Shown piece after piece: positions 7,374 through 33,951 of a stretch of 40,155 nucleotides of DNA (position 1 is its first letter; each line of letters opens with the position of its first letter). Made by a program: the position numbers and the translations under genes. The notes under the pieces are model-generated. The model ran no database searches, was not told the origin of the DNA, and saw only the letters and a program-made list of their open reading frames with translations. Source of the stretch: a virus. Its lineage: Duplodnaviria; Heunggongvirae; Uroviricota; Caudoviricetes. The DNA lies in the IMG/VR virus record IMGVR_UViG_2541047888_000009, one strand, 5' to 3'.

Positions 7374-9848
7374 TTATTGCGGAGTGACATCCTGAGGTCG
7401 CCACCAGTATGTCTGGTTAAACTCTTTCTTCGAACGTTGCTCCATTTTACGCAAATAGCCTGGTGAAAAATACTCCTGCATCTGGTTAAAGATCATGTGA
7501 TCGAGAGCCGCCTTCAAGTACCAGAGATTCGCACCAGGCATCAAACCTTTCCCCAGCTTCACCAGATCACCACCAGTCTGCTCACTCTTCCCTTCCACAG
7601 CATTTAACGGTATGCCCTGAGCAATCTTCACTACGTCATCAACCAGACCAGCTACCGGGCCAAGCATCGACGCCAGCGCGCCGCTTCCGTACCTAGTGTG
7701 ATCTGACAATAAAAAGTCACCGTAAAGGCCAAGACCACCACCTTTCAGTAGAGCACCAAGCCAGAATTTTGCGGCATCTTCTCCTGTCATCTCTCGAGGA
7801 TTACGACCAGACGCAAGGTCGTTAAGTTGCTGCGACAAAGCGCCAAGAATGGTCGTACTGGCAATAAACGTCGCAATATATGCCGCACGCCCACCAGCAG
7901 ACGGCATACCCATAGCGCGTGACCAGTGACGCATAACAACCGAGATAGGGAACGATTTAAACAGGAAAACACTTCTCGTTAATTCACCTTTCCATGTTCC
8001 ACGCTGAATACCAGAACCGGTTATCAGTTGCTCACGTGCTCCCGGTGTAATAACAGCCATATCAACTTCTTCAGTTACGGCACCGAGCAGTTTACGCATT
8101 GCCTCAAATTTCACGCGTTCAGGCTCACCAAGATGTTTAACTGCTGAATCAGGGATACGCATAATGCTTTCCGGTGTCAGCATCGTATTATTACCGTTCC
8201 CCCAATCCTCCTGTTGCGCCAGCTTCCATACGCTCCAATCTGTGTCAGTAATCCCTTTGCTTTTCAGGATACGAAAATCAGAGTCATCGAGGCTACGAAG
8301 GTCTGGTGTCCGTGACACTACTTCTCCCAGGCTTCCCATCATGGTTACGCCATAGGCGCGCTTGTGCGCATCTGACCATGCTGTAAGCCCACTGGCACGC
8401 ATTACCGCCGTTGCCGCCCAACGAGACACTGACGGCCCCATATTATCCATCGCCCAGCGGTTAACGCTGCCAAGTAGAGATTCCATTGCCAGACCAGCGC
8501 GGCGCGCCCGCGCAAGTTCTGTACGGTTCGTTGGGTCCATAGCTTCAAGCTGGTTGCGGAATAACTGGTTCATTGGAAGGTTGGTAACCTTCGCAGACAG
8601 ATACATGGTTCCAAGATCAGAGAACGATGACAGCAACGCGGATCCGAGTCTGCTGGCAACCAGCCAGTTGCGGATATTGTCAGACCATCGCGCGATGTGC
8701 GGATTCGCTACAGGCTGTGTCTTTCCGGAAATAAAGTTGTACAGATTCTCTGTGTTGTTCGCCAGCCGCTCGACTTTACCGGTTTTACTCGGGTTAGCTG
8801 TTGCCGTTTCTGCCTTAACCTGATCAAGAAGGGAGCGGAAAACATGATCGGGGTTTGGACCATATGTTTCCACCAGAGCAATATCTTTACTGATACCTTC
8901 CAGGTGACCGACCATGATTTCCCATAGAGAGCGATCGCCATAAAGTTGTTGATATTGGAGATAGGAATCTGCATCTTTGAAATGTATCTGTCGTGATGCA
9001 TTACCACGGTTAGCACGTGCGCCGGAAATTCGCATTCCGGTATCAGTAAGCTTATTCAGCCCACCAGTAGCGATCGTGTTATAAGCCTCTCCAAGAAATG
9101 CAGACAACTCGGCATCGTTCATCAGTTGTCCATCGGCTCGGGTATAATATTTGCGATCCAGCTTACCTATAACATCGCTAACCCATTTATCTTTTGATAC
9201 CGCCCCAACCTTTTCCATAGAATGATGTTGAGGGATCCCCCAGTTTTCGAGATAGCCAATGTCCCCACCAGCATCATTAAACCGGCGGCGCAGTAGATCT
9301 GTCACTTCTCTCCACGCCTTAGCACCTTTTCTTGCTTTAGCATTGCCAGTATTTTGCCCTCGCATTTCATATACCAGGTCACGCACGCCCGCTTCATCTT
9401 CAAACAGGCCAAAAAAGCGAGGATCAACTGCTTCAAATGCCTCCTGCAATTGACTCAATGCATAATCACGAGTGGCTTTTGTTCTGGATTCAACAGAGAG
9501 GAAATTCGATTTACCGTCTGCATTAAAAGCAATAGTACGGTTAAGAGCGCCAAGTTTCCCATCAGCCCCTTGATAGCTATTGATAAATTTATCCAATCTC
9601 TGACGTGCGGCTATAGTGAGGGCCACACGACGTTTCTTTAATGCCGCTTCTCGCTGTAATTCTTCAGATGCCAATTGTGCTGCACGATACAACCGTTCTG
9701 ATTCGGAAAGTTGTCGCCACGACATAGGGTCATCACGAGCAATGGAGCGCATATTTCGATAAATGCGGTCTTCAATGTTCTGTATTTCTCGCGCCGTTAA
9801 CGTGCGCTGCGCCGCCTGCTGGACCGCTTGTATACATTCCTGTCTCAT
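7374..9848 (-). CDS. Large internal virion / DNA-ejection protein (824 aa)
   Basis: Position in the T7-like order after the gp15-like gene; GAGAGG RBS; Gly-rich hydrophobic C-terminal region. Function inferred from position and size only. Confidence 0.6.
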   Translation of the reverse strand: MRQECIQAVQQAAQRTLTAREIQNIEDRIYRNMRSIARDDPMSWRQLSESERLYRAAQLASEELQREAALKKRRVALTIAARQRLDKFINSYQGADGKLGALNRTIAFNADGKSNFLSVESRTKATRDYALSQLQEAFEAVDPRFFGLFEDEAGVRDLVYEMRGQNTGNAKARKGAKAWREVTDLLRRRFNDAGGDIGYLENWGIPQHHSMEKVGAVSKDKWVSDVIGKLDRKYYTRADGQLMNDAELSAFLGEAYNTIATGGLNKLTDTGMRISGARANRGNASRQIHFKDADSYLQYQQLYGDRSLWEIMVGHLEGISKDIALVETYGPNPDHVFRSLLDQVKAETATANPSKTGKVERLANNTENLYNFISGKTQPVANPHIARWSDNIRNWLVASRLGSALLSSFSDLGTMYLSAKVTNLPMNQLFRNQLEAMDPTNRTELARARRAGLAMESLLGSVNRWAMDNMGPSVSRWAATAVMRASGLTAWSDAHKRAYGVTMMGSLGEVVSRTPDLRSLDDSDFRILKSKGITDTDWSVWKLAQQEDWGNGNNTMLTPESIMRIPDSAVKHLGEPERVKFEAMRKLLGAVTEEVDMAVITPGAREQLITGSGIQRGTWKGELTRSVFLFKSFPISVVMRHWSRAMGMPSAGGRAAYIATFIASTTILGALSQQLNDLASGRNPREMTGEDAAKFWLGALLKGGGLGLYGDFLLSDHTRYGSGALASMLGPVAGLVDDVVKIAQGIPLNAVEGKSEQTGGDLVKLGKGLMPGANLWYLKAALDHMIFNQMQEYFSPGYLRKMEQRSKKEFNQTYWWRPQDVTPQ

Positions 9849-23779: not shown

Positions 23780-23856
23780 GTGGCATTAGCTCAGTCGGAC
23801 AGAGCAACCGCCTTCTAAGCGGTTGGTCGCAGGTTCGAATCCTGCATGCCACGCCA
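23780..23856 (+). tRNA. tRNA-Arg (anticodon UCU, reads AGA)
   Basis: Full cloverleaf folded by hand: acceptor GTGGCAT/ATGCCAC, D-arm GCTC-AGTCGGACA-GAGC, anticodon arm ACCGC-CTTCTAA-GCGGT, T-arm GCAGG-TTCGAAT-CCTGC, discriminator G, encoded CCA. Confidence 0.85.
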
Positions 23857-30494: not shown

Positions 30495-30555
30495 CTTTAC
30501 CCTCGCTTATCCACATAACTTATTGATTACATTGATAACTAAAAAGATCGTCGAT

Positions 30556-31017: not shown

Positions 31018-31818
31018 TTACTTGATAAATCCTGCCGCCTTTCCCCGCCTGTATTCCTCCATCAGCCACTGCGCCGGTGTTATTCCCCCCAGGGTAGCGG
31101 CGTTAGGCATACACCCGAAACTTCGCCCTGGTGGATGGTAAACGTCTCTCCCTGTGTCCGGAGGCGTACTCATGGGCTCTGGCTTTGCCTGTATGCTGAT
31201 CACCGGATCGGGTATCTGCTGTCCGGAAGCCACCTTTTTCGCCCAATCATCGAGCAGCCTGCGTGCGTGTTTCTCAACCTCAATCTCGCTAAGCTGGCGC
31301 TGATACATTGCACGGCGGGTATCACATACGACCCAGTACATAACCGGATGTCGCCACGGGAATCTTTCGGGACCACCAGGATATAAACTTTTTTCCTTGC
31401 TGTACCGGTGAAACTCCGCCATCACATCGTCAATGGTGACGCCAAGAACCATCTTGCTGTCTTTACACCACTTGATAAATTGCCCTGGAGACGGCCAGAA
31501 CGGAGATTCACTGGCGCGGGCGTGGCGCATACCAGCAGAAACCTGTTCACGGGTTCGGATCCCCCCTTCGGCAAACGCAGCAATCCACTGCTGTTTTGCA
31601 GCAACTTCCTGCTCTGGCGTCTTCAGGTTGGTTACCACTGCCGCCGGAAACAGTTGTTTCAACTGTTTGAAAAGGGCATCAACAAGCCTCTCTGCTGACA
31701 TGTTCACTACGTTGTCATTGTTGGTGTACTGATGCTCATAACCTGACATGCGAGAAAGGGCTTCTCCGTCACGGTTTTGTATCGCGGTAAAAACGTTGTT
31801 CACAAGAAATCCTCCCAT
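31018..31818 (-). CDS. Replication protein P-like (helicase loader)
   Basis: Segment QQWIAAFAEGGIRTREQVSAGMRHARASESPFWPSPGQFIKWCK aligns by eye with lambda P (RRQWVLAFRENGITTMEQVNAGMRVARRQNRPFLPSPGQFVAWCR). Confidence 0.8.
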   Translation of the reverse strand: MGGFLVNNVFTAIQNRDGEALSRMSGYEHQYTNNDNVVNMSAERLVDALFKQLKQLFPAAVVTNLKTPEQEVAAKQQWIAAFAEGGIRTREQVSAGMRHARASESPFWPSPGQFIKWCKDSKMVLGVTIDDVMAEFHRYSKEKSLYPGGPERFPWRHPVMYWVVCDTRRAMYQRQLSEIEVEKHARRLLDDWAKKVASGQQIPDPVISIQAKPEPMSTPPDTGRDVYHPPGRSFGCMPNAATLGGITPAQWLMEEYRRGKAAGFIK

Positions 31819-32615
31819 GCTTCAGGGCTGTTCCAGTGCGGAACGTTGTTATCAGGTAATGTTGATTGCTTCTGTCTGCTAATCTGCAGCCGCCTTGCCA
31901 GCTTCTGCTCCCACTGTGCCTGATGGTATGCCTTACCCTCAGCCATCCAGTAAATTCTGAACTCTGCAAGTTCCTGTGCCGTTGGCAGACTGTCCAGGTA
32001 GATCCCCTGCAATGAGCTTTTCCGAAGAAAGTCATCTGATGGTTGCCATTGTTCATGCATGACAAATTTGCCTAATTGCCCTGGCCCACCAGGAGGAACA
32101 AAGTTATTCATCACGGCGTTGTTTGCGCCGGGGTCATGAGGCACAGAATCCCCGCTTTTTGTCCTGCTCTCCCTCTCTTGGTTAAATGACTGGTTATATG
32201 ACTGGTTCTGGATCCCGTTTTTGGGATCATTCAACATCCCGTTTTTGGGATCATTCAACATCCCGTTTTTGGGTATATTCCCGTTTTCGGTAACATTACC
32301 GTTTTCGGGTTCATTACCCCCTTCCCGGTTGCCTTTAATGTTCCCGTTTTTGGTTATATTAAGAGAGAAAACCCGCACTCTTTTCGTCGCTCCCTTTCTC
32401 TCTCCGGTATCTGAAATAAGCCCCATTTTCATGAGCGATATAAGCCCGGCCTGCACGGTTTTTTTATTCAGGCAAGTGTCTTTAACGAGGCGTTCTATGC
32501 TGGGGTAGCAGAGGTTATATTCATCGGCTCTGTCAGCCATCGAGAGCAGTATGAGCTTTAATGACGAGCTACCTGGATCTGTCTCCCAGGCCCAATCTGT
32601 TGCATGTCTGCTCAT
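31800..32615 (-). CDS. Replication initiator, O-like (N-terminal winged-helix domain, repeat-encoded linker, DnaT-like C-terminus)
   Basis: GGAG RBS; N-terminal LKLILLSMADRADEYNLCYPSIERLVKDT...; internal Asn/Gly repeats encoded by the iteron DNA; immediately upstream of and overlapping the P-like gene. Confidence 0.7.
   Translation of the reverse strand: MSRHATDWAWETDPGSSSLKLILLSMADRADEYNLCYPSIERLVKDTCLNKKTVQAGLISLMKMGLISDTGERKGATKRVRVFSLNITKNGNIKGNREGGNEPENGNVTENGNIPKNGMLNDPKNGMLNDPKNGIQNQSYNQSFNQERESRTKSGDSVPHDPGANNAVMNNFVPPGGPGQLGKFVMHEQWQPSDDFLRKSSLQGIYLDSLPTAQELAEFRIYWMAEGKAYHQAQWEQKLARRLQISRQKQSTLPDNNVPHWNSPEAWEDFL
32212..32360. repeat. Iteron-like direct repeats (candidate replication origin) inside the O-like gene
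   Basis: ATCCCGTTTTTGGGATCATTCAAC appears twice exactly in tandem, followed by degenerate copies (CCCGTTTTTGGGTATATTC, CCGTTTTCGGTAACATTAC, CGTTTTCGGGTTCATTACC, CCCGTTTTTGGTTATATT). Confidence 0.6.
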
Positions 32616-32630
32616 GATTAATCTCCGCTA

Positions 32631-32831
32631 TCAGCTTGAATGTTGTGGGGAGGAATTAATCATGATCTGCTTAATCTCTGCCCTGATACGACGGTTTGAT
32701 TCCATGGTGCACTCAACACAGTGTCCGTTGTAAACCCAGCGTTCACTGTCATGTCCGTGCTTACATGTTTTTCCGGTGTAGTAGCGTTTAAGTCCGCGCT
32801 TTGCGGCATCAATACGTGTAATGATTTCCAT
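32631..32831 (-). CDS. Small Cys/His-rich protein (about 66 aa) after the Cro-like gene
   Basis: ATG at 32831 (MEIITRIDAAKRGLKRYYTGKTCKHGHDSERWVYNGHCVEC...); weak RBS; function unknown. Confidence 0.4.
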   Translation of the reverse strand: MEIITRIDAAKRGLKRYYTGKTCKHGHDSERWVYNGHCVECTMESNRRIRAEIKQIMINSSPQHSS

Positions 32832-32911
32832 GGTAAGCCCTGTTATTAGTATTGGGATTACGGTTATTTTGTGCTGACACAAAAAAAAGATCAACCATAT
32901 TTGGTTTTTTA

Positions 32912-32934: not shown

Positions 32935-32960
32935 ATGAAAAGACCGCCGGATGGCGGTCT
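32935..32960 (-). terminator. tR1-like terminator hairpin downstream of the Cro-like gene
   Basis: AGACCGCC-GGAT-GGCGGTCT stem-loop followed on the minus strand by TTTTCA (short U-tract). Confidence 0.4.
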
Positions 32961-32981: not shown

Positions 32982-33212
32982 TCATGAGTAGAAGAAGTAT
33001 GCCAGTTCTGCTTTTGAGCGCAGCCATTGTCTTGATTTACAGGCTTTAAAAAGCCCATCCATCAATACCTTACCTGGCATTTTGCGCTTACCTGTTAAGT
33101 GAGTCTGGATATAGTGACTCGTCGTTCCGGCTTCCTGTGCGAAGGCTTCACGCTCATCCGGAGTAAGTGCAAGCCAGTGCTTTTTGAAATCGAAATGTCC
33201 GTTATCGCTCAT
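32982..33212 (-). CDS. Cro-like HTH regulator
   Basis: 76 aa, divergent from the repressor gene across the operator cluster; HTH-like segment REAFAQEAGTTSHYIQTHLTGKRK. Confidence 0.55.
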   Translation of the reverse strand: MSDNGHFDFKKHWLALTPDEREAFAQEAGTTSHYIQTHLTGKRKMPGKVLMDGLFKACKSRQWLRSKAELAYFFYS

Positions 33213-33237
33213 AGCTATTGCCTGATATTTATTTCAG

Positions 33238-33311
33238 ATAATAAATATTCACCTATAAGGTAACAAAAATCAAGGATAGTTACCCATGAGGTGCATTTAC
33301 CTGTTGGGTAA
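33238..33311. promoter_or_regulatory. OR-like region: three operator palindromes (33249..33263, 33280..33294, 33297..33311) and a PR-like promoter reading leftward
   Basis: Sites TCACCTATAAGGTAA, TTACCCATGAGGTGC, TTACCTGTTGGGTAA; on the minus strand -35 TTGTTA (33261..33266), 17-bp spacer, -10 TATTAT (33238..33243), about 25 bp before the Cro-like ATG. Confidence 0.65.
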
Positions 33312-33366
33312 TATTGCTTTAAATTGAATCATCTACTGATTCATATATGAGGCGATTTTCCAGAAA

Positions 33367-33951
33367 ATGAAAAGTATCCAGGACGTCCGCAGGCAAAATC
33401 TCAACGACTTGATCGACCGTGAATTCAATGGTGTTCAGACGCGGATGGCCGAAAAACTTGGAACTCAGGCAAATCTGGTAAACCGCTGGGCTCTTGGTAA
33501 GAAGGTTATCGGCGATCAGGTTGCGCGAAAAATTGAAGCTGCCGCCAATAAACCCCGTAACTGGCTTGATATCGATCGCTCGCTTTCTCAGGAAGGTTTT
33601 CAGCCTGTCGGCCCAAGCGACATTGGCCAGCTGGCGGCTCACAACCTGGAACGCTGGATGAGCGAAAGCCGCGACCTTTCAACACAGGGAAAACTTCACC
33701 GCGCATCCGGCGTAGCCCAGGTGACAATCAGCCGCCTGTTAAACAATGAGGTCAGCGTTTCCATTTCCACCCTGGAGAATGTTGCATCTGCATTCGGGCG
33801 TCACGGATATGAACTACTGATTCACCCGCACGACCCTGCAACTATCAACTATGACCGCTCGCGCTACGCATTGTTACCTGAAACAGAGAAAGCAAAGATC
33901 GAAAGTTACATTGAATTTGTCATCAACCAGAACGAAAAAAGCAAACAATAA
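33367..33951 (+). CDS. Prophage repressor (CI-like), tandem XRE-type HTH domains, no recognisable S24 peptidase domain
   Basis: Two HTH-like segments (QTRMAEKLGTQANLVNRWALGKK and ASGVAQVTISRLLNNEVSVSISTLENVASAFG); sits between operator clusters, divergent from the Cro-like gene; terminator follows; no SD before the ATG. Confidence 0.65.
   Translation: MKSIQDVRRQNLNDLIDREFNGVQTRMAEKLGTQANLVNRWALGKKVIGDQVARKIEAAANKPRNWLDIDRSLSQEGFQPVGPSDIGQLAAHNLERWMSESRDLSTQGKLHRASGVAQVTISRLLNNEVSVSISTLENVASAFGRHGYELLIHPHDPATINYDRSRYALLPETEKAKIESYIEFVINQNEKSKQ

Follow-up and report, generated by a model that had tools for sequence, protein, structure and literature searches.

Does an array of direct repeats situated within the gene for a phage replication initiator serve as the origin of vegetative replication? 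This question is raised by the virus record IMGVR_UViG_2541047888_000009, a stretch of 40,155 nucleotides (in its full length referred to here as the window). It represents a phiV10-like temperate podovirus of Escherichia coli (genus Uetakevirus), and its segment 31000-33400 is 98-99% identical to the phages phiv142-3, PAS61, and phiV10. A preliminary description of this DNA had taken the repeats, which lie in the coding sequence of an initiator likened to the O protein of phage lambda, as the mark of the likely origin. Our comparative analysis lends support to that proposal: conservation of the repeats across reading frames and genera, their linkage to the N-terminal domain of the initiator, their position in the Edwardsiella phage GF-2, and their occurrence in non-coding DNA are all consistent with it. 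We consider it likely that the array comprises the initiator-binding sites (iterons) of a vegetative replication origin located inside the initiator's own gene, a function that we infer from these comparisons.

An iteron array in the linker-coding part of the initiator gene

Six copies of a TCCCGTTTTYGG-type repeat are present at positions 32211-32355, in the part of the initiator gene that encodes the linker between its two domains. Tandem Repeats Finder reports one run with a period of 24 bp at 32212-32273 (2.6 copies, 100% match) and a second one with a period of 18 bp at 32263-32318 (3.1 copies, 78%); the in-register copies start at 32212, 32236, 32260, 32278, 32296, and 32341, with spacings of 24, 24, 18, 18, and 45 nt. 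When one mismatch at most is allowed, the 12-mer TCCCGTTTTYGG has six occurrences in 32213-32353 and a single further one in the remainder of the 40,155-base window; shuffled sequences contained it 0.37 times on average and twice at most, and seven occurrences were reached in 0 of 100 shuffles. The same scan revealed no second array elsewhere in the window. The tandem array and the exact 24-bp units noted in the preliminary description were thereby confirmed, as was its motif CCGTTTT(T)GG, except that the variable base is a T or a C and not an optional T. The copies and the element that they adjoin are given below; scores refer to a position weight matrix (PWM) built from the six window copies only.

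32340-32355, minus strand: iteron 1, the most distant from the pentamers of the second element, AACCAAAAACGGGAAC
32319-32336, minus strand: very degenerate candidate for a seventh iteron, AAAGGCAACCGGGAAGGG, read from the sequence and below the PWM threshold
32295-32310, minus strand: iteron 2, ACCCGAAAACGGTAAT, 20.0 bits
32277-32292, minus strand: iteron 3, TACCGAAAACGGGAAT, 21.0 bits
32259-32274, minus strand: iteron 4, ACCCAAAAACGGGATG
32235-32250, minus strand: iteron 5, TCCCAAAAACGGGATG, an exact 24-bp unit
32211-32226, minus strand: iteron 6, adjoining the pentamer element, TCCCAAAAACGGGATC on the gene strand, 22.7 bits
32175-32210, minus strand (32210 down to 32175): second element, 36 bp, abutting iteron 6, CAGAACCAGTCATATAACCAGTCATTTAACCAAGAG

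On the gene strand, the consensus of the unit reads (A/T)CCC(A/G)AAAACGG(G/T)A. The arms ATCCC/GGGAT of iteron 6 are inverted repeats, and perfect 5-bp arms of this kind are found in three iterons, those nearest the C-terminal side. Iteron 1 starts 4 nt before the homology of the N-terminal domain ends. The candidate at 32319-32336 lies 26 and 19 nt from its neighbors and out of frame with the other copies, and it is doubtful that it constitutes a seventh iteron.

The iterons correspond to nt 261-405 of the gene, between the regions encoding the HTH_36 domain (amino acids 18-67) and the DnaT domain (amino acids 184-252). All six copies are read in one frame, in which they encode (K/E)-N-G; the core Asn codon is always AAC, and the core Gly codon is GGG in five of the six copies. 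As the preliminary description had it, the linker (amino acids 86-148; 63 residues) is rich in Asn and Gly, which together account for 41% of its residues, compared with 11% outside the linker.

A stretch of 42 bp (32211-32252) at the junction of the iterons and the second element contains three GATC (Dam) sites, at 32211, 32225, and 32249, because the repeat unit reads AATGATCCC. This cluster recurs in the homologous phages GF-2 and AB1, not in Cla, and is not significant: on a rough estimate, chance alone would produce about two clusters of this kind in the window.

The initiator does not belong to the lambda O family

The gene that holds the array and the domains of its product are as follows.

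31800-32615, minus strand: initiator gene, 271 amino acids; N-terminal winged-helix domain, Asn/Gly-rich linker, DnaT-like C-terminal domain
32352-32615, minus strand: N-terminal DNA-binding domain (N-domain), amino acids 1-88, the part that co-occurs with iterons in other phages
31860-32066, minus strand: DnaT-like C-terminal domain (C-domain), amino acids 184-252 (PF17948)

Pfam assigns residues 18-67 to HTH_36 (PF13730; E=1.8e-10) and residues 184-252 to the DnaT domain (PF17948; E=1.2e-15), and the 271-amino-acid protein matches PHROG 1032, 'replication initiation protein' (E=1e-108). Its C-domain is presumed to mediate the interaction with a partner protein and/or the binding of single-stranded DNA (ssDNA). 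The protein found no match to Phage_rep_O (PF04492), the Pfam family of lambda O, even at E≤1, nor to the Rep_3 domain; a BLASTP comparison with lambda O itself gave nothing significant, the best alignment (E=0.07) covering 17 residues. The initiator is outside the lambda O family, and the label 'O-like' that it received in the preliminary description is appropriate for its architecture, position, and role; membership in that family is not borne out by the PF04492 search.

The matches in the PDB (4OU6, 6AEP, and 9ZBT; E about 1e-20 for the first two), which represent the C-terminal domain of DnaT, join query residues 180-265 to residues 85-170 of DnaT only. We rejected an assignment as a DnaT orthologue, since DnaT is devoid of the winged-helix N-terminal half and the match is limited to its C-terminal 70-85 or so residues. 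Counterparts of 31800-32615 are called 'primosomal protein I', 'DnaT', or 'DnaT-like ssDNA-binding domain-containing protein' in public records; because the homology is confined to residues 85-170 of DnaT, the GenBank names 'primosomal protein I / DnaT' are misleading. A single-sequence AlphaFold2 model reached a mean pLDDT of 38, which is too low, and no structural conclusions were drawn from it. When the protein database was queried with the 92-amino-acid N-domain, almost all matches were fragments of 52-158 amino acids that end near the repeat array, which suggests that short-read assemblies often break at the iterons or contain frameshifts or miscalled genes there.

The iterons follow the N-domain across genera and reading frames

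Homologues of the N-domain with 40-58% identity were found in Edwardsiella phage GF-2, Vibrio phage Cla, the Acinetobacter phages AB1 and Ab105, the Qin-type E. coli prophage PPompW, Burkholderia phage Bcep176, and Moraxella phage Mcat8; more distant ones are present in Stx2a phages of the Min27 type. In every one of these genes, a repeat array directly follows the N-domain. In the window, iterons with a core of the form CCC-(A/T)6-GGG start within about 140 nt after the N-domain, and the specific core CCC-AAAAAC-GGG follows homologous N-domains in phages of E. coli, Klebsiella, Edwardsiella, Vibrio, Acinetobacter, and Burkholderia. The PWM finds its strong matches in the homologous loci exclusively in the linker behind the N-domain: 22.7 and 15.3 bits in GF-2, about 14 bits six times in Cla, 19.3 bits in AB1, 19.9 bits in PPompW, 18.1 bits in Ab105, and five sites of 18-23 bits in the Klebsiella homologue. 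No such matches were detected in the initiator genes of phages ZX5, Tyrion, and lambda, which have other N-domains.

It is the nucleotide sequence and not the peptide that is kept at these sites. In the Klebsiella gene, ACCCAAAAACGGGA is translated as TQKRE and YQKRD at two sites and as PENG or PKNG at three, and the repeat periods of 17 and 22 nt in Bcep176 mean that the same DNA is read there in three frames.

Independently of any protein, we scanned IMG/VR for two CCAAAAACGGG cores spaced 6-24 nt apart, which yielded at least 120 loci; the counts that follow are those among the matches listed. In 102 of the 120 listed loci, the array lies in an open reading frame (ORF) whose N-domain is homologous by BLASTP (39-100% identity; 37 distinct sequences), with the iterons located between 4 nt ahead of the point where the N-domain ends and 247 nt beyond it. 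The initiator ORF, which makes up 8.8% of the DNA, contains 554 of the 651 strong sites, and more than one frame is used in 24 of the 37 distinct N-domain variants. Two further loci (L044 and L068) have truncated or frameshifted initiator ORFs. Nine listed loci (L030, L041, L045, L073, L098, L110, L115, L124, and L131) encode a Firmicute-like HTH_36 initiator with the CCCAAAAACGGG core inside the gene in two frames, followed by a DnaB-type helicase. Locus L060 has a true Phage_rep_O gene (PF04492; E=1.5e-31) with intragenic TTACCCAAAAACGGGTA iterons and the same CCCAAAAACGGG core, succeeded by a gene for an IstB/DnaC-type ATPase. Since this core is shared by HTH_36 and Phage_rep_O initiators, the DNA recognition motif may, judged by its distribution, predate the divergence of these initiator families.

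Six listed contigs (L042, L087, L095, L099, L106, and L112) carry the iterons, together with the pentamers of the adjoining element, in non-coding DNA, where the longest stop-to-stop ORF in any frame measures 59-119 codons. One of them, L087 (IMGVR_UViG_2684622683_000014), possesses both arrangements: its initiator gene (209-985) contains iterons at 517-616, and another array, inverted and non-coding, is located at about 7874-7970, 7.3 kb from the intragenic one. Such extragenic arrays could be second origins or the origins of elements that borrow an initiator. The pattern as a whole indicates that the repeats are selected as DNA.

A phased pentamer element adjoins the iterons

The 36-bp element at 32175-32210 contains three pentamers 12 nt apart, namely GAACC (32204-32208), TAACC (32192-32196), and TAACC (32180-32184), and is also picked up by Tandem Repeats Finder as a 12-bp repeat at 32179-32207 (2.4 copies). 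The interval 32212-32360 proposed in the preliminary description does include the array; it leaves out this 12-bp repeat, which by comparison with relatives is part of the same element. A triplet of DAAYC pentamers, 10-14 nt apart and 2-5 nt past the last iteron, is present in nine of 10 homologues and in 31 of the 37 distinct N-domain variants (among the matches listed), against a background of 0.029 per kb. Its period is often no multiple of three (13 nt in Cla, 10 nt in PPompW and Stx2a_F403), and its GC content varies from 0.25 to 0.52 across the homologues. The pentamer element adjoins the non-coding iteron arrays as well. It is retained in homologues with other C-domains and other partner genes and therefore belongs with the N-domain and the iterons, not with the part concerned with helicase loading. 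In a three-way DNA alignment, it occupies the position of the A+T-rich tract of lambda, and from this position we propose 32175-32210 as a candidate site of strand opening or single-strand binding.

The element is devoid of DnaA boxes. The sole perfect DnaA box of the window (TTATCCACA; 30507-30515) is situated 1.7 kb downstream of the iterons, where an A+T-rich gap separates two genes; a single box is less than the 3.9 expected by chance.

Natural exchanges and changes in iteron number

Several phages have exchanged parts of this region. In Enterobacter phage Tyrion, the segment 31847-32660 (N-domain plus linker) is replaced and the array is gone; the C-terminal end of the initiator is kept, as are, with about 80% DNA identity, the gene for the P-type helicase loader and the flanks. 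In phages ZX5 and TL-2011b, the replacement (31549-32888) comprises the whole initiator gene, the small ORF upstream of it, and the first 90 or so codons of the P-type gene. All three phages retain a DnaT-type C-domain and a P-type loader, and have another N-domain and no array. The ZX5 initiator gene (locus L003) contains two 19-bp palindromes, GTAACGCnnnnnGCGTTAC, at 1722-1740 and 1931-1949, with a distance of 209 bp between them, as candidate targets for binding by the N-domain of the ZX5/TL-2011b type.

The reverse situation is met in GF-2. Its initiator (locus L006; 1501-2343) is 52% identical to residues 1-139 of the window protein, that is, the N-domain and the linker, and its C-terminal half is 62% identical to residues 156-299 of lambda O. 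It is a natural hybrid in which an N-domain, iterons, and pentamers of the phiV10 type are joined to a C-terminal half of the lambda O type. The iterons and short repeats of GF-2 align with the four annotated iterons and the A+T-rich tract of lambda, and lambda-like sequence resumes at the ori inverted repeat CGTCnGAGAATTCTGnCGAATCCTCnGAC, which marks the hybrid junction. It follows that the array is positionally equivalent to the iterons of ori-lambda and that the N-domain and the array behave as one exchangeable unit. The iteron type is inherited with the N-domain, in that the swaps lose the array and the GF-2 hybrid keeps it. In lambda, phi80, and 82, it is such a unit of N-domain and array by which origin specificity is inherited, as is known from lambdoid hybrid phages.

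Close relatives of the window phage have five, six, or seven iterons, and phiV10 has one extra 12-mer. Across the 422 E. coli genomes that carry it, the region measures 327, 345, 351, 369, or 375 nt and always remains in frame. Differences of this kind are known from lambda, which has four iterons, and from Stx phages, which have six, and in that case the extra iterons matter for replication (PMC7466680).

Function of the array

We envisage that the N-terminal winged-helix domain of the initiator would bind each quasi-palindromic site (A/T)CCC-AAAAAC-GGG(A/T), probably as a dimer, and that the occupation of multiple sites would give rise to a nucleoprotein complex resembling the O-some of lambda. 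Such a complex could strain and open the adjoining 36-bp element with its three phased (G/T)AACC pentamers (32175-32210). The DnaT-like C-domain and the lambda-P-type protein would then bring the host DnaB helicase to the opened DNA. The array encodes a tolerant linker peptide of low complexity, for which reason the DNA can hold binding sites and can gain or lose units.

A number of observations weigh against an origin at this position. The searchable literature yielded neither experimental data for the window phage or any homologue nor a description of the window origin or of the iterons of this family, and the RefSeq record of phiV10 has no origin annotation there. The tract 32172-32211 is only 1.4 standard deviations less stable than the window mean and forms no pronounced minimum; nor is this tract beside the iterons markedly rich in A+T (GC content 0.42-0.46, depending on the width over which it is taken, and 0.46 over 48 nt, vs. 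about 0.48 locally), and fifteen other 40-bp segments, for instance 33224-33263, are far less stable. A codon test for DNA-level constraint within the window was not significant (p=0.13 and 0.16). The loci of the motif-first scan were chosen for the presence of two sites and many of them are related, so that the enrichment figures overstate independence. Finally, the initiator is not of the lambda O family, and the analogy with ori-lambda is therefore one of architecture.

A more far-reaching interpretation, which we advance tentatively and regard as possible but somewhat less than probable, is that a two-part origin composed of iterons and pentamers is common to a large group of phage initiators with a wide taxonomic range, which would encompass those of the HTH_36 type and at least one of the lambda O type. 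The pentamers would then be a sequence-specific element for opening or single-strand binding, comparable to DnaA-trios or the 13-mers of plasmids and not merely easily melted DNA; the two parts would be kept whatever the C-domain and loader, and stand-alone non-coding copies could exist. Should this be true, a non-coding copy would represent a second origin or the origin on an element that borrows an initiator.

Among other explanations, an unlikely one is that the sites bind the initiator for the purpose of autoregulation, copy control, or the exclusion of related phages, and that opening and helicase loading take place elsewhere, e.g., in an intergenic region rich in A+T. For iteron plasmids, initiation and control depend on one and the same set of sites (PMC6090056). 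The pentamer tract is only mildly unstable, far less stable DNA is found nearby (33224-33263, 33309-33348, and 30506-30545), and the window's only perfect DnaA box lies at 30507-30515. These unstable regions are, however, the repressor/cro control region and gene ends. Furthermore, the pentamers are in register with the last iteron in 31 of the 37 variants (among the matches listed), they accompany the iterons in the non-coding copies, consistent with a single compact functional unit, and in GF-2 they replace the A+T-rich tract of lambda exactly.

We consider it very unlikely that the repeats arose by replication slippage in a disordered Asn/Gly-rich linker and have no function as DNA. Two units of 24 bp are indeed identical and unit number varies among strains, both of which slippage would produce; all six window copies are in one frame, and the codon test within the gene is not significant. 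Against this, it is the nucleotide motif that is conserved and not the peptide, with two or three frames in use among relatives; the motif has dyad symmetry and occurs in non-coding DNA, and it is lost together with the N-domain although the position of the linker is kept. This frame-independent conservation largely refutes slippage.

The least credible proposal, to which we give next to no weight, is that the dyads between the iterons and the T-runs on the plus strand are terminators of antisense transcription or another RNA-level element: although a scan flags plus-strand 32222-32241 and 32246-32265, where GGGAT...ATCCC hairpins are followed by T5, each stem comprises no more than 6 pairs, of which 3 are G-C, around an 8-nt loop, four terminator-like matches compare with a chance expectation of 2.7 ± 1.7, no Rfam family matches there, and relatives keep the iteron core and not the inter-iteron hairpin, so that the hairpins are probably a by-product of the iteron dyads.

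Genomic context

An origin of replication within the initiator gene would be embedded in a minus-strand early operon of lambda-like gene order: a cro-like gene, a terminator, a small ORF, the initiator gene, and the gene for the P-type loader, which shares 19 nt with the end of the initiator gene.

33367-33951, plus strand: repressor gene with two helix-turn-helix (HTH) motifs (ORF list and Pfam)
33238-33266, minus strand: sigma-70-like promoter upstream of the cro-like gene, reading toward the initiator gene from a pR-like position; 9 of 12 consensus positions, a level at which the number of matches in the window is no better than chance
32982-33212, minus strand: cro-like gene, facing the repressor gene
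32941-32960, minus strand: terminator-like intrinsic hairpin between the cro-like gene and the initiator operon; the phiV10 annotation has a terminator
Between the terminator and the initiator gene, minus strand: small ORF, 66 amino acids
31018-31818, minus strand: lambda-P-type helicase-loader gene (PF06992, E=1.5e-56; PHROG 109, 'P-like helicase loader')

Of 5,426 complete E. coli genomes, 422 (about 8%) carry the region, in prophage form. A tRNA-Arg gene (anticodon TCT) lies at 23780-23856, amid the late genes of the window.

Some database records with related sequences deserve mention. A phiV10-like initiator/P segment (97.6-98.7% identity) is contained in the records of two large phages of the virulent type, namely of phage BP9 (PP488543.1; 138 kb; Vequintavirus), where one 24-bp iteron fewer is present, and of PH444 (PP350014.1; 115 kb); both may be chimeric assemblies. 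The circular 'plasmid' records NZ_CP079768.1 and NZ_CP079771.1 (41,027 bp each) encode an identical initiator N-domain and are probably phiV10-like phage genomes. The circular E. coli element pZ1323HEC0067-2 (8,461 bp; locus L015) has a Qin-type early region with a homologous initiator gene and a P-type gene as its only replication genes; this resemblance to a lambda-dv plasmid is suggestive, a lead only. A linear Klebsiella record of 8.6 kb probably represents a fragment of a prophage.

Implications

The array is very probably an expected, so far undescribed, example of a known design, an intragenic iteron origin, which is connected here with an initiator family unlike lambda O; of its aspects, only the two-part layout seen throughout the family is moderately new. 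Phages of the phiV10 type, which serve as reporter phages for E. coli O157, are provided with a concrete predicted origin, and the misleading product name 'primosomal protein I / DnaT' is corrected. Under the lambda rule, the binding sites are part of the gene, so that origin specificity moves along with the initiator's N-terminal half; this rule would extend to another initiator family, one with a far wider distribution. As to how such origins open without a strongly A+T-rich tract, the pentamer element offers a candidate answer, and it could become a sequence signature for the prediction of phage origins and of replicon compatibility in genome annotation.

Comparison with known replication systems

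The resemblance to E. coli DnaT (primosomal protein I) concerns the ssDNA-binding three-helix domain PF17948, to which the C-terminal 70-85 or so residues match. Unlike dnaT, the window gene is part of a phage initiator-loader module and encodes a winged-helix N-terminal half that is absent from DnaT.

As a parallel, iteron plasmids (pSC101, R6K, RK2, P1, F) have direct repeats bound by winged-helix proteins beside short phased opening repeats, and their Rep proteins bind one strand of the 13-mers (PMC4081077; PMC10602881). In contrast to these plasmids, the window encodes no Rep_3 protein, its iterons are intragenic, no DnaA boxes are found at the element, and the helicase is presumably loaded via the phage P-type protein.

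The combination of intragenic and extragenic arrays in contig L087 matches the oriL/oriR pattern of Bacillus phage SPP1. In SPP1, whose initiator is G38P, repeats lie within the initiator gene and a second, extragenic copy is found elsewhere. Lactococcal and staphylococcal phages have origins inside their rep genes (e.g., Weigel and Seitz, 2006, for review). Initiator families, repeats, and hosts are unrelated in all these phages, and the window differs from SPP1 in that it has no second array.

Initiators of the HTH_36 type (those of GF-2, the Vibrio H20-like phages Cla and H8, AB1 and Ab105, Qin/PPompW-type prophages, and Bcep176), for whose origins no description was found in the searchable literature, share the N-domain, the iteron core, and the pentamer triplet with the window phage. 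They differ in the number, spacing, and frame of the iterons and in what surrounds them: a C-domain and P protein of the lambda type in GF-2, a DnaB-type helicase encoded next to the initiator in AB1 and Ab105, and no adjacent loader in Cla.

The closest counterpart in design is ori-lambda. The initiators belong to different families, HTH_36 with a DnaT-like C-domain in the window and Phage_rep_O in lambda; the inner spacer of the iterons measures 6 nt in the window and 9 nt in lambda, and three phased pentamers of ordinary composition stand where lambda has a 40-bp A+T-rich tract. Common to both are C/G-rich inverted arms around an A-tract (ATCCCTCAAAACGAGGGA in lambda, TCCCAAAAACGGGAT in the window) and four to six copies about 18-24 bp apart. 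The number of units differs between relatives in the lambda group too (lambda, phi80, 82, and the Stx phages 933W and P27; PMC7466680). The parallel with lambda drawn in the preliminary description therefore holds: in both phages, dyad-symmetric iterons occupy a central part of the initiator gene (nt 349-433 of 900 in lambda, nt 261-405 in the window), where they encode the linker between the DNA-binding and the partner-binding domain, and they are followed in the direction of transcription by a second element and then by the gene for a P-type loader.

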